Assembly: GCA_964551605.1 (NCBI GenBank)
Contig: CAZKCV010000005.1
Span: forward strand, 7,104 to 71,103
Length of the DNA stretch: 64,000 bases
Direction of reading: 5' to 3'
From: an uncultured Gammaproteobacteria bacterium
Lineage (GTDB): Bacteria; Patescibacteriota; Microgenomatia; Daviesbacterales; UBA10151
Program-made: the position numbers and the translations under genes
Part shown: piece by piece, positions 2,602-53,486 of the stretch
How positions within the stretch are numbered: position 1 is the first letter of the stretch
How the letters are laid out: every line of letters starts with the position of its first letter
The notes under the pieces: generated by a model
What the model saw: only the letters and a program-made list of their open reading frames with translations
Database searches by the model: none
What the model was told of the DNA's origin: nothing

Positions 2602-5600
2602 TCCCCCTCCTCCTTTTCTTTCTCTGCTTCTGCATTTGCATCAACTACTTCAAAAGAACTGCCTTCAGCTTCAAGCTCTCCTTCACCGGCAATCGGCTTC
2701 ATTTCTAAAGCTTCTTCCATTTGCGCTACCTCAGCTGCTACGCCGGCTGCCTCTTCAACTTCCGGAGCTGAGACTATCTTAGCACCGAGTGTATCTACGG
2801 ATAAACCTAAAGCCTGCAACTCTTTAACTAAAACCTTAAAAGATTCCGGAATTAAAGCCTGCGGGATATCTATCCCTTTAACAATTGCTTCAAAAGTCTT
2901 AGCCCTGCCTACCACATCATCGGATTTTATTGTCAACATCTCCTGTAAGATATGGGCAGCACCATATGCTTCCAGCGCCCAAACTTCCATCTCTCCTAAA
3001 CGCTGACCGCCCATTTGAGCTTTTCCGCCCAAAGGCTGCTGGGTAACCAGGGAATATGGTCCGGTGGAACGGGCATGAATTTTTTCTTCCACCATGTGGA
3101 TTAGTTTGAGAATGTAATTCCTGCCTACTACTACGGTATTGCCGAACGGTTGCCCTGTCCTACCGTCAAAAAGCTGAGTTTTGCCGTCTGTTGAAAATCC
3201 TGCTTTTTGCAACTCTTCGATTAGTTTCTCTTCAGGAACTTTCTCAAAAACAGGAACAGCTATTTTATAGCCTAATTTCTTGGCTGCAAAACCCCAGTGT
3301 GTTTCCAGCAATTGTCCCAAATTCATCCTGGACAACACTGATAAAGGAGAAATAATAATGTCAATCGGTGTACCGTCTGCCAAATGGGGCATGTCTGCAA
3401 CAGGCACAATCCTGGAGATAACACCTTTATTACCATGCCGGCCGGCCAGTTTATCTCCGGCAGTAACTTTTCTAAGTTGGGCTACCTTAACCTTAATCCT
3501 CATCAAAGTTCCTGTATCCAGTTCATCACCTTCGTCACGCGAGAGGATCTGCACACCGATTACAGTACCCCTTTCGCCGTGGGGAATCCGCAGGGAAGTA
3601 TCCCTGACTTCTTTAGCCTTTTCTCCGAAAATAGCCCTTAGCAACCTCTCTTCTGCCGTCAGTTCGGTTTCACCTTTAGGCTGAACCTTACCAACTAAAA
3701 TATCATTCGGTCCCACCTCTGCTCCGATCCTAACAATGCCACCCTCATCCAAGTTAACTAAGGCTTCTTCTGAAACATTGGGAATATCATTGGTCAGCTC
3801 TTCCGGACCAAGCTTAGTTTCTACTACATCAACTTCATATTCCTCAATGTGGATGGAGGTTAATACATCATCTTTGACTAATCTATCGGAGATCACAATA
3901 GCATCTTCATACCCCAAACCGTCAAAGCTCATGTAGGCAATAAGCAGATTCTGCCCCAGTGCCAACTCCCCGCCTTCAGAAGCTACGCCGTCAATCAGCA
4001 AATCGCCTTTTTTTACCTTTGTCCCTGAATTTACAACCGGCCTTTGTGAATAACAGGTCCCTTGCGGAGAATGTACGAACTTCTTGATCTCATATTTGAA
4101 CTCCTCATTTTTACCTCCAGAGGAGGGGCGTGTTGTTTTTAAGATCAGCTTTTTACCGTCTACGTATTTTATTTCCCCATCTTCAGGTGCCCGTACTACC
4201 CTCCCCATATTATCGGCCACTATCTTCTCCATACCAGTTCCGACAATCGGAGCAGCAGGCTTAAGTAAAGGCACTGCCTGGCATTGCATTTGGGTACCCA
4301 TCAAAGCCCTATTAGCATCATCATTCGCTAAGAATGGGATCAAAGCAGCCGAAGTCCCAAAAATCTGTTGAGGAGAAATATCTATTAAGGAAATATTTTC
4401 TACCGGCCCTTCAAAGAAACTGCCTCGGAAACGGGTTGGTACCCTTTTATCTAAAATGTAGCCTTTGTCATCTGTATTTACTGTGGCTTCGGTAATATAG
4501 GAATCCTCCTCATCATCAGCGGTAAAATAAACCACCTCGTTGGTAACCCGCGGCCTGCCTTTTTCTTTTACCACCTTTCTATAAGGGGTTTCCAAAAAGC
4601 CATACTCGTTGATACGGGCGTATAAAGCCAAGTATGTCACCAAGCCAATATTTTGCCCTTCAGGGGATCGAATCGGATCGATTCTGCCGTATTGAGAATG
4701 ATTAATATCCCTGACGGAGAAGCTGGCTCTGTCCCGGGTAATACCGCCTGCTCCCATAACGGATAATCTCCTCAGATGGTCCAGTTCCGATAAAGGATTA
4801 ACCTGATCCAAAATGGAGGATAGTTGTGAAGAGCGGAAAAATTCATTAATGGCAGCAATGACAGGTTTAGCATTAATTAATCCACCGGGAGTAACTTCCT
4901 GGTCAACGGCTGTTAAACTCATTCTTTCCTTGATAATTCTTTCCAGCCTTAACACTCCGATCCGGAAAGCATTTTGCTGAACCAGTTCACCGGCACACCT
5001 GACCCTTCTGTTGGCCAAATGATCTATGTCGTCTAATTTGCCCTCACCGAGACTTAATTTAATCAGATACTTTAGAGTGGCAATTATATCTTCTTTGGTT
5101 AAAATCCAATTCTCCGAGGTATTAGGTAAACTTAAGTTTAATCTTTTATTGATTTTATATCTGCCCACCCGGATCAGATTATAACGGCGGGAGTTAAAAA
5201 ACATGCCGTCCAGTAAAGCCTTGGCATTATCCAAAACTACCGGATCTCCCGGACGCATCTTCCTGAAGATTTCTAAAAGTGCCTCATCCGTACTGGTAGT
5301 TGGGTCTTTAGATAAGGTATTGGCGATAAAATTATCCTCTTCCGTTTCAACATCGGCAAAAAGTTCTTTAATCGCTTCATTATCGGAAAATCCCAAAGCG
5401 CGAAGTAAAGTAGTGGCGGCAAATTTTCTCCTTCTGTCGATTTTAGCAGTTAAAACACCACCCCTGGTGATGGAAAATTCCAGCCAGGAACCCCGATACG
5501 GCCTGATCTCTGCCGAAAATAACCTTCTTCCGGTAATCGGATCATCACTGGCCTGAAAAAAGACACCGGGGGAGCGAACCAACTGGTTAATTATCACTCT

Positions 5601-5984
5601 TTCTACCCCGTTTATAATAAATGTTCCCTTATCGGTCATCTGCGGTATATCGCCCAGGAATACATCCTGTTTGTATTCCTGCCCTGTTTGCTTATTTAAT
5701 AAGATGGCCTCAATTTTTAAGGGAGCATCATAGGTAACACCTTTTTCGCTGGCGACCTCCGGAGTGTATTTGGATTTACCGAAATAAAAGGACCCTAGTG
5801 CTAGGGTCCAATTCTTTCCTGTAAAATCTTCTACAGGAGAGATCTCCTCGAGGACTTCTTTAATCCCGGTTTTAAGGAACCAATGATAAGAATCAAGTTG
5901 AATTTTAATTAAATTAAGCTCAGGAAGAGAAACGGGTGCTTTACTCCAATATTTACGATCATTAATAGATGAGTTTAATGACAT
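2598..5984 (-). CDS. rpoB: DNA-directed RNA polymerase subunit beta, with an acidic C-terminal tail
   Basis: 1128-aa ORF with hallmark beta-subunit blocks (GEMEVWALEAYGAAHILQEMLTIKSDD, NMGRVVRAPEDG, rif-region QLSQFMDQ-like). It sits directly upstream of rpoC. Confidence 0.95.
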   Translation of the reverse strand: MSLNSSINDRKYWSKAPVSLPELNLIKIQLDSYHWFLKTGIKEVLEEISPVEDFTGKNWTLALGSFYFGKSKYTPEVASEKGVTYDAPLKIEAILLNKQTGQEYKQDVFLGDIPQMTDKGTFIINGVERVIINQLVRSPGVFFQASDDPITGRRLFSAEIRPYRGSWLEFSITRGGVLTAKIDRRRKFAATTLLRALGFSDNEAIKELFADVETEEDNFIANTLSKDPTTSTDEALLEIFRKMRPGDPVVLDNAKALLDGMFFNSRRYNLIRVGRYKINKRLNLSLPNTSENWILTKEDIIATLKYLIKLSLGEGKLDDIDHLANRRVRCAGELVQQNAFRIGVLRLERIIKERMSLTAVDQEVTPGGLINAKPVIAAINEFFRSSQLSSILDQVNPLSELDHLRRLSVMGAGGITRDRASFSVRDINHSQYGRIDPIRSPEGQNIGLVTYLALYARINEYGFLETPYRKVVKEKGRPRVTNEVVYFTADDEEDSYITEATVNTDDKGYILDKRVPTRFRGSFFEGPVENISLIDISPQQIFGTSAALIPFLANDDANRALMGTQMQCQAVPLLKPAAPIVGTGMEKIVADNMGRVVRAPEDGEIKYVDGKKLILKTTRPSSGGKNEEFKYEIKKFVHSPQGTCYSQRPVVNSGTKVKKGDLLIDGVASEGGELALGQNLLIAYMSFDGLGYEDAIVISDRLVKDDVLTSIHIEEYEVDVVETKLGPEELTNDIPNVSEEALVNLDEGGIVRIGAEVGPNDILVGKVQPKGETELTAEERLLRAIFGEKAKEVRDTSLRIPHGERGTVIGVQILSRDEGDELDTGTLMRIKVKVAQLRKVTAGDKLAGRHGNKGVISRIVPVADMPHLADGTPIDIIISPLSVLSRMNLGQLLETHWGFAAKKLGYKIAVPVFEKVPEEKLIEELQKAGFSTDGKTQLFDGRTGQPFGNTVVVGRNYILKLIHMVEEKIHARSTGPYSLVTQQPLGGKAQMGGQRLGEMEVWALEAYGAAHILQEMLTIKSDDVVGRAKTFEAIVKGIDIPQALIPESFKVLVKELQALGLSVDTLGAKIVSAPEVEEAAGVAAEVAQMEEALEMKPIAGEGELEAEGSSFEVVDANAEAEKEKEEGE

Positions 5985-10665: not shown

Positions 10666-12510
10666 TTATTTTAACACAATTTGTGCCCTAATCCGCCTGA
10701 TTCCCGAGGAGACTGCTTCTTCTTTAGTAATCTTAATTTTACCAATGACTGCGGTACGTTCAACGTGTGGCCCGCCGCAAACTTCCAGAGAATAATAACC
10801 GCCCCGCTCCCGCTGGTCCTTTGCGCTGGAGTCTAAATGATAATCAGGCCCAATTCCGTAAATACTTATTTCCGTACCATATTTTTCGTCAAACAACCCA
10901 ATAGCGCCCATACTTTTGGCCTCAGCCGGACTGACAATTTTCTTGTCTACTTTTAAATCTTCCTCAATTTTTTTATTTACCAAATCTTCAGTTTGTTTAA
11001 TTTCTTCATCTGTCAGTTTTCGACCAAAAGAAAAATCAAACCTGAGTCTCTCAGCAGTTATATTAGATCCCTTCTGAAAAACTTCCGGCCCCAGCACATC
11101 CCGCAGCGCCTGGTGCAGAAGATGGGTCGCTGTATGGTATTTGGTAACTACCTCACTCTGATCAGCCAATCCCCCTTTAAATATTCCCGCAGAAGCAGTC
11201 CGGGAGAGTTCTTTATGTTTTTCAAATTCTGCTTTAAATTGTTCCCTATCAATCTCCTGCCCTTTTTGCCTAAACAACTCTTCCGTCACCTCAAAAGGAA
11301 AACCAAAAGTTTGGTACAAATCAAAAGCTGCTTTACCGTCAATTTTTTCAATTTTGGCAATTTCCTTCAAACCATTATCTAATGTCTTGGAAAACCGATC
11401 CATTTCCCCTTCAATTTCTAATTTAATTTTCTCCTTCAGTGAAATATCTAATAACCCTGTATCTGAATAAGTATCAATTACACTCTCACTTACTTTTGCT
11501 AAATCTTTTAGATCTTTTACAGTAAAACACTCATCGATTTTCAATCTGACTGCTGATCTGCGCAGTAACCTCCTTAGGACATATCCTTGTAGCTTGTTTG
11601 ATGGTGTAACACCGTTAGCCATCAAAAACGTTACTGCTCTTATATGATCTGTAATTATTCTAAAATCATCATTAACTACCGGGTCCTGGTAACTTCGTCC
11701 GGTAATATTTCCAATACTAGCAGTTATTTTCTCAAATAAATCAGATTCAAAGAGATCGGGATTGTTGTTTACGGCAGCAGTAATCCGTTCCAATCCACCT
11801 CCAAAGTCAACATTTTTCTGGGGCAATTCTTCCAATCTTCCATCTGTCTTTTTACGATATTGGATAAAAACTGAATTACCGATTTCTAAGAATCTTCCGC
11901 ATTCACAATTTGGGTGACATTTTTCTCCGTAATTTGAATCATGTTCAACTTGAGTAAATTCAAAAAATATTTCACTGTCCGGCCCACCAATTTCTTCTGT
12001 CGGCATTTTTTCCGGACTCCCCGACCTTGACCACCAATTTTTGTCCACCCCGTAAAAGTGGATATGATCTTCCGACACTCCTAAATCTCTCCAAATCTCA
12101 TATGATTCCACATCCTTCGGCACATCCTCATTTCCTTTAAAAACAGAGACATATAATTTTTCTTTTGGCAGACCTAATTCTTTTATTAAAAACTCCCAAA
12201 TCCAAGGAAGTTGCTCCTTCTTAAAATAATCTCCCAAAGACCAATTACCCAACATTTCAAAAAAAGTGGTATGGCGATTATCACCCACTTCTTCAATGTC
12301 TTCTGCCCGGAAGGAGGGCTGAGAATTTACTAATCTTTTACCGACCGGATGGGATTGACCTAACAAATAGGGAACTAACGGCTGCATACCGGAAGAGGTA
12401 AAAAGGGTAGAAGGATCATTTTCCGGCACCAACTTAGCAGGCGCAATCTCCTTATGCCCTTTATCCACAAAAAATTTAATATATTTTTCCCTAATCTGCT
12501 TGGATGTCAT
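10666..12510 (-). CDS. alaS: Alanine--tRNA ligase (short form lacking the C-terminal oligomerisation domain)
   Basis: Class II core motifs FTSSGMQP and RHTTFFEMLGNWSLGDYFK. Editing-domain motifs HTATHLLHQALRDVLG and CGGPHV are present. Confidence 0.9.
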   Translation of the reverse strand: MTSKQIREKYIKFFVDKGHKEIAPAKLVPENDPSTLFTSSGMQPLVPYLLGQSHPVGKRLVNSQPSFRAEDIEEVGDNRHTTFFEMLGNWSLGDYFKKEQLPWIWEFLIKELGLPKEKLYVSVFKGNEDVPKDVESYEIWRDLGVSEDHIHFYGVDKNWWSRSGSPEKMPTEEIGGPDSEIFFEFTQVEHDSNYGEKCHPNCECGRFLEIGNSVFIQYRKKTDGRLEELPQKNVDFGGGLERITAAVNNNPDLFESDLFEKITASIGNITGRSYQDPVVNDDFRIITDHIRAVTFLMANGVTPSNKLQGYVLRRLLRRSAVRLKIDECFTVKDLKDLAKVSESVIDTYSDTGLLDISLKEKIKLEIEGEMDRFSKTLDNGLKEIAKIEKIDGKAAFDLYQTFGFPFEVTEELFRQKGQEIDREQFKAEFEKHKELSRTASAGIFKGGLADQSEVVTKYHTATHLLHQALRDVLGPEVFQKGSNITAERLRFDFSFGRKLTDEEIKQTEDLVNKKIEEDLKVDKKIVSPAEAKSMGAIGLFDEKYGTEISIYGIGPDYHLDSSAKDQRERGGYYSLEVCGGPHVERTAVIGKIKITKEEAVSSGIRRIRAQIVLK

Positions 12511-46000: not shown

Positions 46001-46690
46001 TTACTCCACCACAGCTTGACAAATTTTAATAAATTCTTCCGTATCTAAAGAGGCATTGCCTACTAAAACTCCGCTGATATTTTCCTCTTTGATAAAATCA
46101 GTAACGTTTCCTGAATTAACACTGCCTCCGTAAAGTACTTCCATATCAGGTCTGACTTGTTTAAAAGAGCTTGCCATATTATTAGCATCTTCCGGGGTGT
46201 CTGCTCTTCCAGTCCCAGGAGTATTAGTTAATCCGGTACTAATTGCCCACACCGGTTCATAAGCTACCAACTTACAACCATCAGGTACTGGTGTTTCACT
46301 ACCTTGTACGCATACCAGCGGCGTAATGTCATTTGCTAAAGCCTGTTCTGTTTTTTTCGCTACTATCTCATCTGTTTCACTAAAATTTTCCCGTCGTTCA
46401 CTATGACCCAAAATCACCAAATCAATCAATCCTTTTAATAGTCCTGCTGATTCTTCACCGGTATAAGCACCCACCCCAAAAGGAGACAAATCCTGAGCAC
46501 CTGTTAACAAAGGGAAACCACCAACGGTAATAGTCTTTTTAACCTCAGCAAGATCGCTAAAAGTCGGACAAACCACCACTTTTAAATTATCCTGCTTAGG
46601 AATTTTCGGGCCAACCTGGGAAATCCAGTCTAAAGCCTCGCTAATATTTTTATTGCTTTTCCAGTTAGCAATAATCCAAATATCCTTCAT
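46001..46690 (-). CDS. tpiA: Triosephosphate isomerase
   Basis: IIANWKSN, VILGHSERR, AYEPVWAISTG and YGGSV motifs. Confidence 0.85.
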   Translation of the reverse strand: MKDIWIIANWKSNKNISEALDWISQVGPKIPKQDNLKVVVCPTFSDLAEVKKTITVGGFPLLTGAQDLSPFGVGAYTGEESAGLLKGLIDLVILGHSERRENFSETDEIVAKKTEQALANDITPLVCVQGSETPVPDGCKLVAYEPVWAISTGLTNTPGTGRADTPEDANNMASSFKQVRPDMEVLYGGSVNSGNVTDFIKEENISGVLVGNASLDTEEFIKICQAVVE

Positions 46691-46790
46691 AATTTCTAAT
46701 TTTTAATTACTAATTTCTAATCAAATCCCAATGACTAAATTTCTAAACTAGACATTAGTCATTATTTAGATCAATTAGGTTAATTAGTAA

Positions 46791-47102
46791 TTAGGTCAAT
46801 TCTTTTCCCCACCATCCATACTTTTCCAAGTTTACCATGAAATCAGTCGTCACTTCTATGCCTTCCTGCTCCAGCAGAGCTTTTTGAAGCTTTTTGGGAT
46901 GGTCAAGACACTTAGTAGAAATAAATCCATGGCGGTTGACTACCCGATGCCAAGGGGTATTTTCTCCCTGGTAATGTAAAATTCCCCCCACTAACCTGGC
47001 CCCTCTTGGAATTCCCGCTAAAATAGCCACAGTACCATAAGAGGTTACCTTACCATAGGGAATCTTTTTTACAATTTTAATGACTCGATCTTTGAAGTTC
47101 AT
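46791..47102 (-). CDS. Alkyltransferase-like protein (ATL; MGMT DNA-binding domain with PWHRV in place of PCHRV), translationally coupled to the DGR reverse transcriptase
   Basis: 103 aa, VIKIVKKIPYGKVTSYGTVAILAGIPRGARLVGGILHYQGENTPWHRVVNRHGFIS, closely resembling E. coli YbaZ/Atl. Its ATG overlaps the RT stop (ATGA at 47099-47102). Confidence 0.8.
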   Translation of the reverse strand: MNFKDRVIKIVKKIPYGKVTSYGTVAILAGIPRGARLVGGILHYQGENTPWHRVVNRHGFISTKCLDHPKKLQKALLEQEGIEVTTDFMVNLEKYGWWGKELT

Positions 47103-48106
47103 TGAATAAAGTAAACCATATTTTTCAGGTTCTGGGCAACCTTAAAACTATTCGTATGACTTAAATACCCCAAATATGATTGCAAAGACTGGTTAAAATT
47201 TTCAGAACCAACTTTTTCATTTAATTTTTTAAATATCCTTTTTTTAGTTTTGGTTCTTGGTAATACATAGTGCGGCAGGGCAATATAACCCAGAAAATCA
47301 ATTCCCCAATCAGGTCGGCGAAGAATAATCTTTTTGGGATGTAATTCTAGTTTTAGTTTTTCTTGTAGAAACATCTTCATCAACTCGATTAAATGACTTA
47401 AATTATTTTTGCTGGTGGATAAAAATAAAAAGTCATCAGCATAACGAATATAATATTTAAACTTGAGCTTTTGTTTTATGTATTGATCCAACTCATTCAT
47501 GTAGATATTTGCGAAAACTTGAGAAGTTAGGTTGCCCAGTGGGATTCCTTTCTTTTCTCCGCATTCAGAATGGAAACTATTTATTATTTCCCCTAATAAC
47601 CATAAAATGTTTTGGTCATTAATCTTTTTCCTTAAAAACTTCAACAAGTTTTCATGGTTTACATTCGCAAAGAATTTTTTAATATCACATTTTAAAGCCC
47701 AACAAGGCCTTGTATAATTTCTGCTTATTTTCCGTGCAAACTTCTCAAGCCGCAGGACTCCTTTATGCGTTCCTTTTTCTAATCTGCAAGAATAGGAATC
47801 AAAAATAAAGGTTTTGTCGAAAATTTCGTTGAGATATTTATATAAAAGGTGATGAACAACCCTATCTTGCACTGATGCTTTATGAATGTGCCTTCTTTTT
47901 GGATCATGGACAAAGAAGGCAAAATAATTTCCGTGCCGATAGGTTTTCTTTATTAAACTCTCATGTAAAGCAAACAAATTATCTTCTAAATTTCTTTCAA
48001 ACTCTTGCACATCTTTCCTTTTTCTCTTACCAGCCCTAAACTCACTCCACGCTTGAAATAAATCCTCGGCTGATGTAAGTTGAGAATACGATTTATGAGT
48101 AATCAT
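47099..48106 (-). CDS. Diversity-generating retroelement (DGR) reverse transcriptase
   Basis: 335 aa with the RT palm motifs and the DGR-RT hallmark GIPLGNLTSQVFANIYMNELD (SQ in place of the group-II QG) plus YADD (YIRYADDFLFL). No maturase or endonuclease domains. Adjacent Avd, TR and VR. Confidence 0.85.
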   Translation of the reverse strand: MITHKSYSQLTSAEDLFQAWSEFRAGKRKRKDVQEFERNLEDNLFALHESLIKKTYRHGNYFAFFVHDPKRRHIHKASVQDRVVHHLLYKYLNEIFDKTFIFDSYSCRLEKGTHKGVLRLEKFARKISRNYTRPCWALKCDIKKFFANVNHENLLKFLRKKINDQNILWLLGEIINSFHSECGEKKGIPLGNLTSQVFANIYMNELDQYIKQKLKFKYYIRYADDFLFLSTSKNNLSHLIELMKMFLQEKLKLELHPKKIILRRPDWGIDFLGYIALPHYVLPRTKTKKRIFKKLNEKVGSENFNQSLQSYLGYLSHTNSFKVAQNLKNMVYFIQ

Positions 48107-48120
48107 CTTTTAAGAAATAC

Positions 48121-48135
48121 CACACACACACACAC
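48121..48135. repeat. (CA)7 dinucleotide microsatellite between the divergent RT and avd starts
   Basis: ccacacacacacacact read directly, 15-29 nt upstream of the RT ATG on the minus strand. On the plus strand it lies in the avd frame just upstream of the conserved Avd N-terminal helix. Confidence 0.9.
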
Positions 48136-48194
48136 TGGCTAAATCTAGCCTTGATATCCCGATTTTTGCTAAACTTTATGATTTTTACAAAAAT

Positions 48195-48485
48195 TTGAGT
48201 CAATTTCTGGCATCTTTTCCAAAAAACAAACGTTATACTTTAGGTCAAAAAATAGACCAAATCACTATAGATATTATTGAGCTGACTATTACGGCGGGAT
48301 ACTTACCCAGAGAGCAAAAACTACCAATTCTGCAAAAAATCAGTACCAAGCTTGACCTTTTAAAAATACTTTTAAGAATAGCCTGGGAAACAAAAAGCTT
48401 CAATAATAATAGGTACCAACTCCTAACCTCCCAGCTAATTGAAATAGGCAAAATGCTGGGAGGCTGGATTAAAATTTTTAGGTAA
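48195..48485 (+). CDS. avd: DGR accessory variability determinant (Avd; four-helix-bundle / IVS-like protein). Homology extends ~20 codons further upstream, to a possible CTG start at 48135
   Basis: ...FPKNKRYTLGQKIDQITIDIIELTITAGY... and C-terminal LLTSQLIEIGKMLGGWIKIF match the Avd/four-helix-bundle family. The upstream in-frame translation LAKSSLDIPIFAKLYDFYKN matches Avd helix 1 but has no ATG/GTG/TTG start. Confidence 0.65.
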   Translation: MSQFLASFPKNKRYTLGQKIDQITIDIIELTITAGYLPREQKLPILQKISTKLDLLKILLRIAWETKSFNNNRYQLLTSQLIEIGKMLGGWIKIFR

Positions 48486-48494
48486 CGGATGCTT

Positions 48495-48607
48495 CCAGAG
48501 GACGAAACGCAATATTGTCATTGTGGTTATCAGTCCAATTGTAGTTTACGTTACTCAAGCCACCATTGTCAGAATTCCCGCCAATGAGACGGTTATCGAC
48601 CCCGAAT
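48495..48607 (-). repeat. DGR template repeat (TR), 113 bp; sense strand (the adenine-bearing strand) is the minus strand
   Basis: It aligns with 48951-49063 without gaps. Of 23 mismatches, 22 are at TR positions that are A on the minus strand; the remaining one is C versus T. The TR frame reads FGVDNRLIGGNSDNGGLSNVNYNWTDNHNDNIAFRPL with 9 AAY codons. Confidence 0.9.
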
Positions 48608-48909
48608 ATAGTACCCAAATCCGCAACTTAACTCCACTGTGGCTTCATAACAAACTGTCGCCACTGTATTTTATCCCTCCGCCGGTAGGCGGAGCAAAGA
48701 TTCAGGCACGTAGCTTCCTTTTCCTAATTTTACCTGAGCATCACTCCCTTAATCTCCTTGAAGATTAAAGCTCTGGATACTTGATCCGGCAAAAAACAAG
48801 GTGATCCTAAACCGTAATCTAGAATTCATGAACCTTATCGAAGGAATTGTAAAAAAATAATCCCAAGTTTTCAAGAACTAAAAATTCAAGGGTTTTTCCA
48901 AGAAAAAAG

Positions 48910-49680
48910 TTACCAGGTTACCAAGCTTTGAGGCTGGGAAAGGAAAACTACCAGAGGACGAAACGCAAGACCGTCACAGTGGTGACCAGTCCAATCGTAG
49001 AGTACGTGACTCAAGCCACCACTGCCAGAACCCCCGCCAATGAAACGGTGAGCGACCCCGAACTTATCATCAAACCCCTCCCAAGTAGGATCTTCTCCTA
49101 AATACTGATAACGGAGATTTCCTGCAAAGTTAAACTCCGCAGCTTTCGGCCTTCTTATTGCCACCAGACCGGAAGCTATATGATCAACTAAACGTAGTGG
49201 TTTTGCTAATTCCGGGAATACATGGCTATCCTGTTCATCCATTGATACACCAAAACGGGAAGTTCTCGATCTGGTGCAACTAGGATCTTTAATTTTATCC
49301 AGACCTCTACCCGTTGCCAGAATTATACCGAACTCCTTATCTCCGGCAAATTCAGGTCTTCTGCTGTCATCAAATAAAGTCCAATAAGCTCCAATTTTAG
49401 CTGCATCAGGACTAATATTCGGCTTTCTGCCTGTCATCCATTCAAAAAACAGCGGATTTAATTTTTTCCAGCCGGGAGGTGTGGGTGAATCCAATCTGGT
49501 TTCTCCTAAAGGAAAATGGAAGGGTTTAAAGAAACCATACCCTTCACCTTCGGCTACTTTTTGCGATTCTAAAAACAACTTCGTGGGTACTGCAACGGGT
49601 ACATCAACTACTCCCAGCTTCTTTCTGTATTCTTCTTTAGCTTGTTCCACTAATTGGGGTGCACTAAGAAATTCTGACAT
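48910..49680 (-). CDS. DGR target (variable) protein with a C-terminal C-type-lectin/FGE-like fold carrying the VR; no signal peptide evident
   Basis: 256 aa. The C-terminus FGVAHRFIGGGSGSGGLSHVLYDWTGHHCDGLAFRPLVV is encoded by the VR, and every VR-specific residue sits at a TR AAY/GAY/ATT codon. Confidence 0.8.
   Translation of the reverse strand: MSEFLSAPQLVEQAKEEYRKKLGVVDVPVAVPTKLFLESQKVAEGEGYGFFKPFHFPLGETRLDSPTPPGWKKLNPLFFEWMTGRKPNISPDAAKIGAYWTLFDDSRRPEFAGDKEFGIILATGRGLDKIKDPSCTRSRTSRFGVSMDEQDSHVFPELAKPLRLVDHIASGLVAIRRPKAAEFNFAGNLRYQYLGEDPTWEGFDDKFGVAHRFIGGGSGSGGLSHVLYDWTGHHCDGLAFRPLVVFLSQPQSLVTW
48951..49063 (-). repeat. DGR variable repeat (VR) at the 3' end of the target gene
   Basis: See the TR entry. 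The 3'-end (IMH-side) identity ends exactly at ...CGTTTCGTCCTCTGG. Confidence 0.9.
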
Positions 49681-49701: not shown

Positions 49702-51402
49702 CTATGAGATATTTGTCAATAGTTTTAAAAGTTCGGCTTTGGAAATAACCCCAATTTTTCTGCCCACTTCTTTCCCGTCTTTTAGGACAATGTAGGTTGG
49801 GATGCTCATCACTCCATGCTCACTGGCTTTAGCTTGATTATCATCAACATTAATTTTTTCTATTTCCACCTTACCAGCCAGCTCTTTTTCCAATTCTTCA
49901 ATCACAGGCTCCATTACTTTACAGGGCCCACAATTATGAGAGACCATCCCATTAGTTATAACGGTATGAGGGTCGCCGACTGTAATACCTATTACATCAC
50001 GACTATCTGCTTCTTCAATTGATAAGACTCTTTCCCACAATAAGTTTCCTTGTTGACGCTGTTCCAACCATTTTATAAATAAAGCCTCACCGCCTTTAGC
50101 AGGATACACTACTTGAGTATCTCTATTTGCATAATTCCAGCTAACTATTGTGCCAACTGGGATTTGCAAACTCTCAGCAATTTGGTTACTGCTGACTCCT
50201 AAGGCTAACTGCTGAAGAGCAATTTGCTTTGCTTGAATATAACGATTACGTTCAAAAAGTCTGTACTGTAAAAACTCCCTGATAAAAGGAATGCTAACAT
50301 TCTTTGATCTAGCATAAGCGTAGCCAATACTAGCTAAGTTAAATAGCGATTGATAGTCAGTAGCTACTCTGAGTGAAATAATTACCCCGTCTTCATCATC
50401 ACTGCTTGATATATCCCTTACTTCAACTCCCAATTGTTCAAGTAATAATCCCAGTTGTTTCGCGTAAAGAATTCCCTCTCTCTCTAAATATTTTTCTTTA
50501 TGGAATTCAATTGCATTAACAGAAAATCTAGCATCATGAGAACTGCTACCTGCATGTTTCATTTGATAAGCAATTTTGCATCCATCTCCACCCAACCAGC
50601 CACTCAGAAAAGCTTTCTTGACTAAAATATCTCCCTCCATAATCCAATCTGGGATAAAATAAGCCTGGTTCTTTTTTCTGCCTTCTGGACAACCCAAAGC
50701 TTTTAGCAGAAAAAACAATGTTCTATTGAGATTGCGGCAACGTAAAATGTGTATGGTAAATTTTCTCTCACCAATTTGACGATCTTTAACTTGCCTTTTG
50801 ATTTCTAGTTTATCAAAACCTAGAATCTGTAGATCCTCTTTTATAGTCCTGGCATCATCTTCTGTGCCCACAAAGAAATGTGTCTCGTAAATATTGTGTT
50901 TTAAATCCTCATATAGATAACCATCAGTCATCACAAACCCAAGTAGTCTGGCTAAAATGGGTAGCCGTGAATTATTAGCTTTCAGAGGCAACAAACCCAA
51001 TTGAGTAAGTATCTTATCCGCAAAGATATTGCCAACAGAAGTCAGAATTACCTGATCATTATCTGATTCAAAAACTGGATTATCCTGAGCTGGATTAACC
51101 AGAATACTATCACCAATTATTAACTCTCTCAACTTCTTAAAACCTTCTTGAGTTAAGGCTAAATGATTGATATCTCCTATTAATTCTCTACCTGTTTCCA
51201 AAACTATTTTTTTAGAAAGTGCATTTTTAAAAATTCTTATCTTTTGGACTTTTTGAATTGATTGTTTTTTGGTCTTTGGATCAATTGCGACTAATTTTTG
51301 TCCTACCTGAACTTGTAAAGCTTTTATATAACCATTTTCAGTTAAAACCGGAGTTTCCGGATCAATACACCAAGGTGCCCAAAAATCCAAAAGTTTCATC
51401 AT
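49702..51402 (-). CDS. trxA: Thioredoxin interrupted by a 479-aa intein (precursor 566 aa; mature Trx ~87 aa)
   Basis: N-extein MMKLLDFWAPW plus C-extein CGPCKVMEP...IPTYIVLKDGKEVGRKIGVISKAELLKLL reconstitute a canonical thioredoxin (DFWAPWCGPCK). The insert begins with C and ends ...VSHN before the +1 Cys. Confidence 0.85.
   Translation of the reverse strand: MMKLLDFWAPWCIDPETPVLTENGYIKALQVQVGQKLVAIDPKTKKQSIQKVQKIRIFKNALSKKIVLETGRELIGDINHLALTQEGFKKLRELIIGDSILVNPAQDNPVFESDNDQVILTSVGNIFADKILTQLGLLPLKANNSRLPILARLLGFVMTDGYLYEDLKHNIYETHFFVGTEDDARTIKEDLQILGFDKLEIKRQVKDRQIGERKFTIHILRCRNLNRTLFFLLKALGCPEGRKKNQAYFIPDWIMEGDILVKKAFLSGWLGGDGCKIAYQMKHAGSSSHDARFSVNAIEFHKEKYLEREGILYAKQLGLLLEQLGVEVRDISSSDDEDGVIISLRVATDYQSLFNLASIGYAYARSKNVSIPFIREFLQYRLFERNRYIQAKQIALQQLALGVSSNQIAESLQIPVGTIVSWNYANRDTQVVYPAKGGEALFIKWLEQRQQGNLLWERVLSIEEADSRDVIGITVGDPHTVITNGMVSHNCGPCKVMEPVIEELEKELAGKVEIEKINVDDNQAKASEHGVMSIPTYIVLKDGKEVGRKIGVISKAELLKLLTNIS
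49933..51369 (-). mobile_element. Intein with LAGLIDADG homing endonuclease domain inserted at the thioredoxin WC|GPC active site
   Basis: Block A CIDPETPVLTENGYIKAL, two dodecapeptide motifs LLGFVMTDGYL and FLSGWLGGDGCK, and terminal block DVIGITVGDPHTVITNGMVSHN followed by Cys+1. Confidence 0.8.
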
Positions 51403-51479: not shown

Positions 51480-53486
51480 ATGCCCAACTTCCTCTTAGAT
51501 GACCTAAATCCTATCCAAAAACAAGCTGTCCAAGCCACCGAAGGTCCAGTTCTAATTTTAGCGGGGGCGGGTTCCGGTAAAACTAAAGTCTTAACCCACC
51601 GGGTGGCTTATTTAATCCAAGATAAAGGTATACCGCCGGAAAATATCCTATGTCTGACTTTCACCAATAAAGCTGCTGGTGAAATGATGGACCGGATTAG
51701 GAAACTTCTCCAAACTACCAACTACCAACTACCAACTACTCCCATCATGGGCACATTCCATAGCTTTTGCGCCAGGATCCTGCGCCGTGAGGGTCGGACC
51801 CTGGGACTCCCACCGGGATTTGCCATCTATGACGAAGGTGACACGCTGGACGCAGTAAAAGAAGCCATGGGCAATTTAAACATCCCCACCCAAAAAACTT
51901 CCCCCCACTCTGTCCGGACTACCATTTCCGGCGCTAAAAATGAACTCATCTCTTCCCTGGAATACCCCCAATATGCCAGGGGTTACTTTCAGGAAACGGT
52001 CGCCAAGATTTACCTGGAATACCAGAAAATTCTAGAGCGTAATCACGCCCTGGACTTTGATGACCTACTACTGTATGTCATTAGGTTATTCCAGGCCGAA
52101 CCCGCTATTTTAACCCGCTACCAAATTCAATTCAAATACATCTTAATTGACGAATACCAGGACACCAACCCGGCTCAATATCTAATCAGTAAGTATTTAG
52201 CCAACCGCCACAAAAACATCTGCGTGGTGGGAGATGCCAGCCAATCAATTTATTCCTTCCGGGGAGCTGATTTCCGCAATATTGTGAATTTTCAAAAAGA
52301 CTACCCGAATACTAAAGTCTTTAATCTTGAGCAAAATTACCGTTCTACTCAAAATATTCTGGATGCGGCCTTTGCAGTCATTTCCAAAAATAAATCCCAT
52401 CCAATCTTAAAGCTTTGGACTGATAACGATAGCGGAGAGAAAATTGAAGTGGTGGAAGTGAGAAATGAGATTGAGGAAACCTTATTTATCCTAAATACCA
52501 TCGCTCACCTCCGAGGTGAGCTTAAGACGACACCAGGATCACACCTCGGAGGTGTAACAAAATTATCTGATTTTGCCATCCTTTACAGAACCAATGCCCA
52601 ATCCAGATCTTTAGAAGAACAATTTCTAAAAGCCGGCATTCCATATCAACTAGTCGGCGGGGTCAGTTTCTATGCCAGAAAGGAAATTAAAGATGTTTTA
52701 GCTTATCTTCGCTTACTGCAAAACCCCAAAGATTCCGTATCCTTAAAACGGGCAGAGAAAATCGGTAAAGGAAGGCTCACCAAAATCATGGAACTCCAAA
52801 ACGTCATTGCGAGCGAAGCGAAGCAATCTGGCCCAGATAATAACCCCACCCAGATTGCTTCGTCGCCCCGTACCGTACGGTACGGGGCTCCTCGCAATGA
52901 CGACTTGTCTTGCACTACCCTTGAACTTCTGGACAAGATCCTAGAGGTAGCAGGTTATTTGACTTACCTGGACGATAGTACCGAAGAAGGAAAAATCCGG
53001 ATAGAAAACGTCAAAGAGCTACGCTCTGTAGCAGAAGAATTTCCTGATCTAACTAACTTTTTAGAAAACGTTGCTTTAATGGAAGCTTCCGATACACCGA
53101 AACACCGAAACACTGAAACGCTGAAAAAAGATGCCGTTACCTTAATGACCTTGCATTCCGCCAAAGGCTTAGAGTTTCCGGTCATTTTTATGGTTGGCAT
53201 GGAAGAAGGTCTATTCCCCCATTCAAGGTCTATGTTAGATCTTCATGAACTGGAAGAAGAAAGAAGACTTTGTTATGTTGGCATTACTAGGGCTAAAGAA
53301 AAATTGTACTTAACTTATACCAAGCAAAGGTTATATTTTGGCCAAAGAAGCAATAATTTAGTATCCAGATTTTTAGGAGATATCCCTCAGGATTTAATTT
53401 TAAGCAATACCAATTTTCGGGATCAGGATAGCTTTTTAGATGATGTTACTAGTAATATCAATGAGGACGATTGGCTAAAGATTTGA
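51480..53486 (+). CDS. uvrD: ATP-dependent DNA helicase UvrD/PcrA family, carrying several in-frame repeat insertions
   Basis: Walker A AGAGSGKTKVLTHRVAYLI, motifs TFTNKAAGEM, GTFHSFC, DEYQDTNPAQY, VGDASQSIYSFRGAD, TLHSAKGLEFPVIF, and VGITRAKEKLYLTY. Confidence 0.85.
   Translation: MPNFLLDDLNPIQKQAVQATEGPVLILAGAGSGKTKVLTHRVAYLIQDKGIPPENILCLTFTNKAAGEMMDRIRKLLQTTNYQLPTTPIMGTFHSFCARILRREGRTLGLPPGFAIYDEGDTLDAVKEAMGNLNIPTQKTSPHSVRTTISGAKNELISSLEYPQYARGYFQETVAKIYLEYQKILERNHALDFDDLLLYVIRLFQAEPAILTRYQIQFKYILIDEYQDTNPAQYLISKYLANRHKNICVVGDASQSIYSFRGADFRNIVNFQKDYPNTKVFNLEQNYRSTQNILDAAFAVISKNKSHPILKLWTDNDSGEKIEVVEVRNEIEETLFILNTIAHLRGELKTTPGSHLGGVTKLSDFAILYRTNAQSRSLEEQFLKAGIPYQLVGGVSFYARKEIKDVLAYLRLLQNPKDSVSLKRAEKIGKGRLTKIMELQNVIASEAKQSGPDNNPTQIASSPRTVRYGAPRNDDLSCTTLELLDKILEVAGYLTYLDDSTEEGKIRIENVKELRSVAEEFPDLTNFLENVALMEASDTPKHRNTETLKKDAVTLMTLHSAKGLEFPVIFMVGMEEGLFPHSRSMLDLHELEEERRLCYVGITRAKEKLYLTYTKQRLYFGQRSNNLVSRFLGDIPQDLILSNTNFRDQDSFLDDVTSNINEDDWLKI
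51713..51740. repeat. Heptanucleotide tandem repeat (AACTACC) x3 perfect + 1 imperfect, in frame within uvrD (encodes TTNYQLPTTP between helicase motifs Ia and II)
   Basis: aactaccaactaccaactaccaactact read directly. Related CTACCA-type heptads occur in the FemAB-like gene (59408-59476) and sbcD (62894-62914). Confidence 0.85.
52503..52557. repeat. Two CACCTC-N-GAGGTG palindromes (GCTCACCTC-C-GAGGTGAGC and ACACCTC-G-GAGGTGT) in frame within uvrD; same core as the 14862/25424 repeat
   Basis: Direct reading. They encode HLRGELKTTPGSHLGGVTKL, a segment absent from typical UvrD alignments at this position. Confidence 0.7.
52803..52901. repeat. 99-bp in-frame palindromic (MITE-like) element in uvrD, with perfect 11-bp TIRs GTCATTGCGAG / CTCGCAATGAC, an internal 13-bp inverted repeat and a 22-bp perfect palindrome
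   Basis: gtcattgcgagcgaagcgaagcaatctgg...ccagattgcttcgtcgCCCCGTACCGTACGGTACGGGGctcctcgcaatgac. It is exactly 33 codons (VIASEAKQSGPDNNPTQIASSPRTVRYGAPRNDD) and belongs to the GTCATYC family. Confidence 0.85.
53098..53127. repeat. Octamer-like tandem repeat ACCGAAAC/ACCGAAAC/ACTGAAAC/GCTGAAAA in frame within uvrD
   Basis: accgaaacaccgaaacactgaaacgctgaaaa encodes TPKHRNTETLKK just before the conserved motif V region. Confidence 0.6.

Follow-up and report, generated by a model that had tools for sequence, protein, structure and literature searches.

A thioredoxin precursor with a probable homing intein at its active-site motif in a Candidatus Daviesbacteria-like genome

The window, that is, the whole stretch of 64,000 nucleotides analysed here, contains a thioredoxin gene which is interrupted at its catalytic motif. 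The question it raises is what an insert of 479 residues is doing in the redox centre of a small protein. The host genome is Candidatus Daviesbacteria-like and belongs to the CPR. With a probability of roughly 85% we read the gene product as a thioredoxin precursor bearing a canonical class-1, probably mobile, double-motif LAGLIDADG homing intein at W↓CGPC (the arrow marks the insertion point); the best reading is of an ordinary class-1 homing intein, although both the host protein and the site are undescribed. What is shown directly is the anatomy, conservation, fold and distribution of the element, together with its presence/absence polymorphism at a single locus, purifying selection and a tract of recombination; that the protein really splices, that the endonuclease is active and which target it homes to are inferred from these.

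The precursor gene occupies 49702–51402 on the minus strand, as do all of its parts given below, and comprises 566 codons plus a stop (49702–49704). It is a single intact open reading frame with zero internal stops, and its product is identical to a 566-residue precursor present in public data (P0001). The N-extein (residues 1–11, MMKLLDFWAPW, 51370–51402) represents the first beta-strand of a short thioredoxin and ends at the Trp of WCGPC; the same short start occurs in intein-free alleles, and the strand is predicted in both models. Then follow the intein (residues 12–490, 479 residues, CIDPETPV...MVSHN, 49933–51369), a HINT domain split by a LAGLIDADG endonuclease domain, and the C-extein (residues 491–566, CGPCKVMEP... 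to the end of the thioredoxin, 49705–49932), which matches PDB thioredoxins at 1e-17; the Pfam Thioredoxin match covers residues 488–562 of the precursor [E=1.5e-18]. A sequence-only reading of this DNA had proposed a thioredoxin interrupted by a 479-residue LAGLIDADG intein which starts with Cys and ends with His-Asn, and the reading frame, the domains, the HINT fold and the terminal residues (Cys12, His489-Asn490) all agree with it. It had placed the break at WC↓GPC, which has to be corrected: the insertion point lies between Trp11 and the first Cys of CGPC, and the Cys directly following Trp in the precursor is a residue of the intein (Cys12) rather than of thioredoxin. A six-frame ORF profile search and motif scans of the window revealed no second intein, second thioredoxin or trxB, nor did Rfam and tRNA scans of it reveal other mobile or intron elements.

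Conceptual splicing yields an 87-residue product with the junction DFWAPWCGPCK, which keeps the WCGPC active-site motif and scores 107.3 bits against the TIGR01068 thioredoxin model (cut-off 96.8). The expectation that the exteins would join to a canonical thioredoxin is correct as far as this model goes, but the product is an N-terminally short form which spans profile positions 18–99 of 101; it lacks positions 1–17, and does not have the full five-stranded fold with N-terminal beta1-alpha1. The short N-terminus is the normal form of thioredoxin in this lineage, the long one being found in relatives P0056, P0058 and P0063–71. Intein-free alleles of 84–87 residues are 74–87% identical to the spliced extein (120 among the matches listed). 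Short thioredoxins from Candidatus Daviesbacteria (P0100, P0140 and P0149) have the same minimal fold and locus as the spliced product, but are without the 1437-nt insert of the window gene. The model of an intein-free orthologue (pLDDT 95.6) is beta-alpha-beta-alpha-beta-beta-alpha, with four strands and three helices, and fits solved thioredoxins of E. coli and S. aureus to ~1 Å (TM 0.91–0.92). We presume that the intein-free Daviesbacteria alleles are homing substrates; in two of them (L003 5001–5258 and L004 5001–5261) the core at the insertion point reads GATTTTTGGGCTCCYTGG↓TGCGGACCWTGY.

Conservation of the splicing domain was assessed in alignments of 20 sequences (A1), 76 sequences (A2) and thioredoxin inteins (A3). 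Block A (CIDPETPVLTENGY, 51328–51369) begins with Cys12, which is intein residue 1; this residue and Cys491, the first of the C-extein, are both invariant in the 76 sequences, and the proposal that the +1 residue is the nucleophilic Cys of CGPC is borne out. Block B (GRELIGDINHLALTQEGF, 51139–51192) aligns to that of the Ssp DnaB intein and has an invariant His80; the Thr of its TxxH motif is replaced by Asp77 in the clade of the window (DINH) and is present in the divergent clade (TDEH/TDDH). Of these two residues in block B, it is His that is the better conserved among inteins. Blocks F and G (RDVIGITVGDPHTVIT NGMVSHN, 49933–50001) align to the C-terminal splicing block of the solved DnaB, DnaX and gp41-1 inteins, with His479, Asn484, His489 and Asn490 conserved. 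Asn490 is invariant, His489 is invariant in the thioredoxin inteins of A1 and A3 and at least 90% conserved in A2, and His479 of block F is at least 90% conserved. At position F:4 the block-F Asp is absent, the residue being Gly in the window's clade and Ala or Val in the other when the register is set manually against a typical block F. This Asp coordinates steps in many class-1 inteins but is not universal, so that its absence leaves intein membership intact. A careful alignment, suggested earlier as a check for loss of splicing blocks, thus shows nucleophiles, His and Asn kept, and deviations at the block-B Thr and F:4 Asp. Cys1, the block-B His, the penultimate His, the terminal Asn and the +1 Cys are invariant across relatives which are only 30–39% identical.

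Generic intein models give scores just below their thresholds: Pfam Intein_splicing [PF14890] 35.5 bits against a cut-off of 35.8, TIGR01443 14.6 against 15.6 and, further off, TIGR01445 14.5 against 24.5. NCBIfam RtcB_rel_intein [NF038162, "intein-containing RtcB family protein"] matches residues 12–493 with E=1.7e-52, yet falls far under its full-length cut-off because the host protein differs. The marginal scores are what one could cite for a non-splicing insertion, a pseudogene or an assembly artefact, with either a disrupted thioredoxin or a chimeric contig. We regard this as scarcely conceivable, and the comparative data in effect rule it out: the frame stays open here and across ~70 independent assemblies (NCBI, JGI, ENA, Logan), the exteins are strongly constrained (dN/dS ~0.09–0.12), all splicing nucleophiles are conserved, and removal of the insert restores the exact WCGPC motif. 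The intein profile matches the solved DnaB, DnaX, gp41-1, RecA and VMA inteins (best 4e-14). With the AF2 model of the precursor (pLDDT 89.2, pTM 0.83) Foldseek ranked inteins with an endonuclease first, then LAGLIDADG enzymes of the I-DmoI type, and after these mini-inteins and thioredoxins; the mini-inteins DnaB and gp41-1 superimpose with an rmsd of 1.8–2.6 Å over ~95–105 columns. The insert is a HINT-fold intein.

Between the splicing blocks lies first a variable linker (residues 106–145, 50968–51087), from which, judging by the alignment and protein lengths, ~30 residues are deleted in relatives of ~530 residues. The two LAGLIDADG dodecapeptides that had been anticipated are present at residues 149–164 (ILARLLGFVMTDGYLY, acidic Asp160, 50911–50958) and 262–277 (KKAFLSGWLGGDGCKI, acidic Asp273, 50572–50619). 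In the first, A1 shows no variation at Asp160 or Gly161; Gly161 stays invariant in A2, where Asp160 reaches at least 90%. In the second, Gly271–Gly274, with Asp273 among them, do not vary in A1 and reach at least 90% conservation in A2. The segment at 50641–50682 (GRKKNQAYFIPDWI) we take, following intein nomenclature, to be endonuclease block D with its catalytic Lys. Gly241 and Trp253 do not vary in it, and at Lys243, Gln246 and Pro251 conservation is complete or no lower than 90%; Lys243 is invariant among the 20 sequences of A1 and keeps at least 90% among the 76 of A2. The duplicated alpha-beta-beta-alpha-beta-beta-alpha core is present in the predicted structure (Foldseek, secondary structure), and Foldseek matches to LAGLIDADG proteins include E-DreI, I-DmoI, I-SceI, I-WcaI, bI3 maturase and WhiA (prob 1.00, TMt 0.5–0.64). 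Following this core, residues 390–424 (50131–50235) form an HTH-like segment, with predicted helices at 371–400, 405–412 and 416–424; WhiA combines LAGLIDADG and HTH, and one relative has a precomputed PF08281 match. On the model, this segment is a probable extra DNA-binding module. The dN/dS values are 0.07–0.22 for the endonuclease domain and 0.09–0.27 for the splicing domain, and the endonuclease domain is under purifying selection. Such conservation suggests that both endonuclease activity and splicing have been retained.

In the precursor the junction peptides are FWAPWCIDPETPVLTENGYIK and ...GMVSHNCGPCK. Cys491 doubles as the +1 splice nucleophile and the attacking Cys of thioredoxin, and Cys494 is the resolving Cys. 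By established intein chemistry, Cys12 would carry out an N-to-S acyl shift at the Trp11-Cys12 bond, and the thioester would be attacked by Cys491, the catalytic Cys of thioredoxin, to give a branched intermediate. Cyclisation of Asn490, aided by His489, would then release the intein, and an S-to-N shift would restore the Trp-Cys peptide bond and leave an 87-residue, minimal-fold thioredoxin with WCGPC intact. The freed intein would probably act as a site-specific endonuclease on intein-free trx alleles, with the highly conserved ...TTTTGGGCNCCNTGG↓TGYGGNCCNTGY... as its predicted cleavage site, and would spread through repair-mediated gene conversion (homing). The element behaves as a selfish one, which the host presumably tolerates because it splices.

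Inteins occupy this thioredoxin site in about 70 homologues, which stem from Daviesbacteria, Curtissbacteria, a further bacterial lineage, six DPANN archaeal MAGs and a single contig (L021). The contig has a phage- or plasmid-like look, so that a phage might conceivably serve as vector. In every full-length homologue the insertion point is W↓C(G/P/M)PC. This is a thioredoxin-specific intein family, patchily distributed in CPR bacteria and DPANN archaea. Is it still mobile? The intein may instead be an immobile relic which splices but whose endonuclease no longer homes; it would be inherited vertically with occasional precise deletion, and the endonuclease domain would be conserved only for folding and splicing of the precursor. 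The correlation of intein and extein divergence (Spearman 0.57), from which much of the inheritance is vertical, fits such a relic. So does the extein tree, a neighbour-joining tree built on only ~85 residues: intein-containing and intein-free exteins are interleaved on it, which favours the homing reading, but with 28 state changes against 50 for shuffled labels the intein is more clustered than at random. Mini-intein or free-standing copies were not seen among the relatives, and a scan of IMG/VR gave no viral relative, both of which are likewise in keeping with loss of mobility. We nevertheless consider a relic unlikely. Across 30% identity and domains of life, neither catalytic Asp nor the block-D Lys varies in the 20 sequences, and all three are at least 90% conserved in the 76; the endonuclease domain also has a dN/dS no higher than the splicing domain. 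Furthermore, bacterial and archaeal hosts are intermixed within one subclade of the thioredoxin inteins, which requires horizontal transfer; occurrence at the same site in CPR and DPANN with the hosts mixed points to inter-domain transfer between organisms which share habitats.

A tract of 433 nt within the intein (50049–50481) is, by direct alignment, 100% identical to that of another Daviesbacteria MAG (L001), the flanking genes of which are ~78% identical to those of the window; against this background the tract, too, argues against a relic. It reflects either recent recombination or gene conversion. A second 150-nt window of 100% identity lies outside the intein (46670–46819), and the tract could therefore be due to general homologous recombination rather than homing. 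The intein is probably still mobile.

A second alternative concerns the host. The intein may have been domesticated as a redox switch, kept since thiol redox gates splicing and so tunes thioredoxin output post-translationally. The gate could possibly be a Cys12-Cys491 or Cys491-Cys494 (CGPC) disulfide in the precursor which blocks transesterification, and mature thioredoxin might reduce its own precursor in a positive feedback. Cys12, Cys491 and Cys494 do converge at the splice site. It had been suggested that Cys1, Cys+1 and the resolving Cys are close after splicing; Cys1 departs with the intein, and they are close only in the precursor. An engineered redox trap reportedly placed CPGC, a CxxC resembling that of thioredoxin or glutaredoxin, across the junction of the Ssp DnaE intein. 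In the thioredoxin precursor, by contrast, the CxxC occurs naturally as the redox centre of the host enzyme itself, and both its cysteines (Cys+1, Cys+4) belong to the C-extein. [quoted passage not shown] By analogy with these, the thioredoxin intein would have catalytic cysteines at both junctions which a disulfide can lock, and with such precedent redox-conditional splicing is plausible, though no sequence feature speaks for it in particular. Also in favour of a switch are the purifying selection on every part of the intein and a bacterial relative (L020) in which the intein gene lies directly upstream of a thioredoxin-reductase-like gene.

An adaptive switch is nonetheless improbable. Within this genus-level clade, and at the very same locus, alleles without an intein are no rarer than those with one, so the host does not need the intein, and a parasitic element fits better than a required regulator. 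A patchy distribution combined with conserved endonuclease residues is what marks a selfish homing element. Apart from the standard splicing set, the clades have no conserved Cys or motif in common, Cys222, Cys238 and Cys275 being clade-specific, and redox sensitivity in vitro would not by itself demonstrate an adaptive role. Rather tentatively, one may combine natural redox-conditional splicing of the thioredoxin intein with repeated moves of the family between CPR and DPANN. In that event the oxidised precursor would hold Cys+1 in a CGPC disulfide or in a Cys1-Cys+1 disulfide and splice only upon reduction; mature thioredoxin or thioredoxin reductase may reduce the precursor, with self-amplifying maturation as the result. 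If true, the repeated moves would make the family a marker of gene flow between two radiations of ultra-small episymbionts.

To return to the homing intein, its best Foldseek matches are TliVMA, PhoVMA (7qss, 7qst), PI-TkoII (2cw7) and PI-SceI (1vde, 1ef0) with E values of 1e-15 to 1e-10. They share the HINT and two-motif LAGLIDADG domains, Cys1, the C-terminal His-Asn and Cys+1, but are only 12–14% identical in sequence and reside in V-ATPase or DNA polymerase rather than thioredoxin; the thioredoxin intein differs further in its added HTH-like segment, the block-B Asp for Thr and the absence of the block-F Asp. The nearest relatives outside thioredoxin are inteins of archaeal and large-virus RtcB, RNA polymerase subunit B, ribosomal protein S12 and aRF1 (24–33% identity, E down to 1e-64). 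These have the same domain order and, for most, a +1 Cys in a conserved active-site motif, while host genes and sites differ. The thioredoxin inteins form a clade of their own on a neighbour-joining tree drawn without bootstrap support values.

That thioredoxin is not a classical intein host, as had been supposed, agrees with the literature searched. Full-text searches of freely readable papers for natural thioredoxin inteins, or for inteins of CPR and DPANN, gave no mention of thioredoxin as a host; targeted look-ups in the Novikova 2016 survey, a 2018 review and a 2025 actinophage survey gave none either. A comparison with intein HMMs for thioredoxin insertions had also been proposed, and no NCBIfam model for an intein-containing thioredoxin matched the precursor. 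Known hosts are mostly replication, repair and other ATP-binding proteins (PMC4760082), beside which a small redox protein is out of the ordinary. With a catalytic Cys as +1 nucleophile and the resolving Cys three residues on, the 566-residue precursor is a compact natural test case for inteins as redox switches, for which the many natural intein-free alleles and the divergent intein alleles at the same site are ready controls. Standard intein HMMs narrowly miss the intein, and databases name the proteins "hypothetical protein" or "thioredoxin family protein"; such genes are consequently mis-sized and mis-annotated in CPR and DPANN genomes.

The gene order G5/3D, UvrD, Trx, DNA_binding_1, TIM, LytR is shared by the intein-free loci L003 and L004 and the intein-containing loci L001 and L005; the intein-free alleles which sister genomes have at this locus are 75–87% identical. 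In the window a diversity-generating retroelement (DGR) adjoins the thioredoxin gene, its target gene ending at 49680, 21 nt from the trx stop codon. It has a reverse transcriptase [RVT_1, 5e-26], an Avd protein [bAvd, 1.9e-16] and a TR/VR pair (48481–48606 and 48937–49062) which is 81% identical, 20 of the 24 differences falling at TR adenines; the reverse transcriptase, Avd and adenine-biased repeat pair that define a DGR are thus all present. The intein had been noted to lie beside the DGR, which the 21-nt gap confirms, and a hotspot for selfish elements had been suspected. This second part fails: at eight related loci (six distinct intein-containing and two intein-free) neither reverse transcriptase nor Avd occurs, while UvrD, Trx and DNA_binding_1 are kept. 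It follows that the DGR cassette was inserted independently and is peculiar to the genome of the window, and on synteny we reject a hotspot linking the two and do not count the DGR as part of the intein system. The flanks of trx vary irrespective of intein presence, L005 having a target-like gene there and L004 an unrelated ORF.

The thioredoxin precursor gene (trx) is a single, unbroken ORF of 566 codons at 49702–51402 on the minus strand. Its translation gives an N-extein of 11 aa (MMKLLDFWAPW), an intein of 479 aa (CIDPETPV...GMVSHN) and a C-extein of 76 aa (CGPCKVMEP...TNIS). Pfam Thioredoxin covers aa 488–562 [1.5e-18], the C-extein matches PDB thioredoxins at about 1e-17, and the 87-aa product spliced in silico scores 107.3 bits against the equivalog TIGR01068 "thioredoxin," above its cut-off of 96.8. 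Pfam Intein_splicing falls just below its cut-off (aa 32–490, 35.5 versus 35.8 bits), and the NCBIfam model for intein-containing RtcB extends across aa 12–493 [1.7e-52]. Given the intact ORF, these domain matches and the score of the spliced product, the sequence-only reading of a thioredoxin interrupted by an intein is therefore right in every material point. It correctly put the break at the centre of the thioredoxin CGPC motif, but the exact point is W|CGPC rather than WC|GPC; in the precursor, the Cys directly after Trp belongs to the intein as its Cys1.

Among 76 aligned sequences (69 full-length thioredoxin-intein proteins and seven inteins of other hosts) Cys12 (intein residue 1), His80 (block B), Gly161, Asn490 and Cys491 (+1) are the same in 76 of 76. 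Asp160, Gly271–Gly274 (including Asp273), Lys243 in a K..IP-type block, Asn484 and His489 are at least 90% conserved there and invariant in an alignment of 20 thioredoxin inteins, while His479 reaches 90% or more in both. The block-B Thr is replaced by Asp (DINH) in the window intein's clade, a divergent clade has TDEH or TDDH, and the block-F Asp is missing; to our knowledge neither residue is universal among inteins. These deviations and the marginal HMM scores are probably why database entries go by "hypothetical protein" or "thioredoxin family protein."

AlphaFold2 modelled the precursor confidently (mean pLDDT 89.2, pTM 0.83), with pLDDT below 50 only at the GPCK just past the C-terminal splice junction. 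Foldseek against the PDB ranked first the endonuclease-containing inteins TliVMA, PhoVMA, PI-TkoII and PI-SceI [1e-15 to 1e-10], followed by the free LAGLIDADG enzymes E-DreI, I-DmoI, I-SceI and I-WcaI together with WhiA, the mini-inteins Ssp/Npu DnaB and gp41-1 (rmsd about 2 Å) and lastly thioredoxins (rmsd about 1 Å over about 75 residues). A profile from eight intein-only sequences matched the solved DnaB, DnaX, gp41-1, RecA and VMA inteins [best 4e-14]. In kind the element is a well-known one, a LAGLIDADG intein placed at an active-site Cys of a conserved protein. Thioredoxin as host and W|CGPC as site appear new as an intein location; neither is described in the literature searched, and no curated family model covers a thioredoxin-hosted intein or its site.

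Under established class-1 intein chemistry, Cys12 would form a thioester at Trp11, the N-extein would be transferred to Cys491, Asn490 would cyclise, and the W–C bond would be restored through an S-to-N shift. Unspliced thioredoxin would be nonfunctional, since the Cys it attacks with doubles as the splice nucleophile and about 480 residues of sequence separate it from its first strand. Redox gating is chemically reasonable. A Cys12–Cys491 or Cys491–Cys494 disulfide would block the transfer to Cys491, and other inteins offer natural and engineered precedents (cited in PMC5874633 and PMC4760082). Nothing in the comparative data singles it out, however; the alignments show no extra conserved cysteines, and close relatives often carry intein-free alleles. 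That the intein serves as an adaptive redox switch gating thioredoxin splicing seems to us unlikely, and some redox sensitivity of splicing in vitro is the likelier prospect.

The gene order G5/3D protein, UvrD, Trx, DNA_binding_1, TIM, LytR is common to two intein-containing (L001, L005) and two intein-free (L003, L004) related loci, and the intein is polymorphic for presence at one orthologous site. The DNA at the insertion point is almost invariant (TTTTGGGCNCCNTGG|TGYGGNCCNTGY). In a tree of 180 exteins, intein-plus and intein-minus sequences are interleaved (28 state changes versus a mean of 50 with shuffled labels), and for a third of the intein-containing exteins the nearest neighbour is intein-free. 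The endonuclease domain is as strongly conserved as the splicing domain and exteins, both in identity to the window protein (endonuclease 0.70, HINT N-part 0.65, C-extein 0.71) and in dN/dS (endonuclease 0.07–0.22, splicing domain 0.09–0.27, exteins about 0.09–0.12). Overall, the element fits a selfish intein in the usual homing cycle, active still or until very recently.

Against L001 the intein is a mosaic: 433 nt (50049–50481) are perfectly identical, with a sharp boundary, whereas the N-terminal half is just 58–77% identical and the flanking genes about 78% (DNA; pS 0.64–0.66). The mosaic shows that intein DNA has recombined recently between diverged genomes. A second stretch, of 150 nt and outside the intein (46670–46819), lying near the 3' terminus of DNA_binding_1 (46791–47102) and immediately downstream, is 100% identical to L001 in surroundings of 70–78%. 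Because of it the 433-nt tract is not assignable to endonuclease-driven homing over ordinary recombination; short recombination tracts may be frequent between these Daviesbacteria populations, beyond the intein too. Intein and extein divergence are correlated (rho 0.57), so vertical descent is substantial.

A search with the full precursor returned one identical protein, about 60 at 60–79% identity (named sources Daviesbacteria and Curtissbacteria) and nine at 32–36% with a full-length thioredoxin N-terminus; the insertion site is identical in every homologue. With the intein alone as query, an exhaustive HMMER search gave 635 relatives with E<=1e-3. Thioredoxin is the host of at least 17 of the top 150 cluster representatives, CPPC and CMPC variants among them; the others have RNA polymerase subunit B, RtcB, ribosomal protein S12 or similar hosts of archaeal or viral type. 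A scan in which a single genome stood for each GTDB species gave 13 loci, all thioredoxins split at W|CGPC, from MAGs of Daviesbacteria and Curtissbacteria, from three with placeholder names and from six of DPANN archaea (Nanohalobium, Nanoarchaeia, Nanoarchaeota, Diapherotrites and two Woesearchaeota). Three GTDB representatives (L011, L012, L015) hold Daviesbacteria-like or CPR-like thioredoxin-intein loci under "uncultured Gammaproteobacteria bacterium (binchicken...)" titles, which look like placeholder taxonomy. The archaeal assignment of one locus (L019) is supported by an adjoining deoxyhypusine synthase gene [1e-121]; the contig (L020) of another homologue, P0071, is bacterial, with a bacterial-type peptidyl-tRNA hydrolase and Crp.

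A neighbour-joining tree without bootstrap sets the thioredoxin inteins as a group apart from those of RpoB, RtcB and S12, and one subclade mixes bacterial and archaeal hosts at 43–50% identity. P0063 (39% identical), the closest sister to the Daviesbacteria clade, is encoded at 3410–5119 of a JGI 3300036985 contig (L021) with genes for a TubZ-like tubulin, UvsW-like helicase, DnaB and IstB. This contig looks like a phage or plasmid, and such a replicon might serve as the intein's vector; an IMG/VR scan found no relative. Real if moderate interest comes from the CPR/DPANN spread and from the natural CxxC found where the intein is spliced out.

The N-terminal beta1-alpha1 of the E. coli type is missing from the spliced thioredoxin, which matches profile positions 18–99 of 101. 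Damage is not the explanation. The spliced extein retrieved thousands of thioredoxins; the 120 matches listed are intein-free, 83–99 aa long (mostly 84–87) and 74–87% identical, with Candidatus Daviesbacteria as named sources. A model of one of them, built with 36 homologues, has the fold beta-alpha-beta-alpha-beta-beta-alpha (pLDDT 95.6) and superposes on solved thioredoxins with TM 0.91–0.92 and rmsd about 1 Å. The short form is therefore this lineage's normal thioredoxin. Directly downstream of the P0071 gene in L020 lies a gene (10907–11821) for a 304-aa pyridine-nucleotide disulfide oxidoreductase, thioredoxin-reductase-like, and P0071 therefore probably belongs to a trx-trxB pair as the main thioredoxin.

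The intein gene does lie immediately beside a diversity-generating retroelement (DGR), a bona fide and complete cassette between trx and the DNA_binding_1 gene, in the region 46791–49680. It comprises the RT (47099–48106, minus strand, RVT_1 [5e-26]), bAvd (48195–48485, plus strand), a target gene without Pfam match (48910–49680, minus strand) and a TR (48481–48606) and VR (48937–49062) of 126 nt each, 81% identical, with 20 of their 24 differences on TR adenines. In all eight related loci, intein-containing or intein-free, trx and DNA_binding_1 abut and the cassette is absent; it is thus an independent, genome-specific insertion. The proposed selfish-element hotspot is not supported as a tie between intein and DGR. 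The trx flanks do vary among genomes, irrespective of the intein, in the UvrD–trx intergenic space. There L005 has, on the side of trx opposite to the DGR target of the window, a gene (5157–5930) 61% identical to that target protein, with no RT nearby, and L004 has an unrelated 201-aa ORF (4355–4960).

Scans of the whole 64 kb (1–64000) for tRNA genes and for Rfam families at gathering threshold found neither. In the neighbouring uvrD/pcrA gene (51480–53486, plus strand), a palindromic element at 52806–52905 (GTCATTGCGAGCGAAGCGAAGCAATCTGG...CCAGATTGCTTCG...CCTCGCAATGAC) encodes an in-frame insertion of about 30 aa (IASEAKQSGPDNNPTQIASSPRTVRYGAPRNDD). The window and L001 both have the insertion, L003 has a shorter one, and L004 and L005 have none; it resembles a small palindromic repeat element that a helicase loop tolerates.
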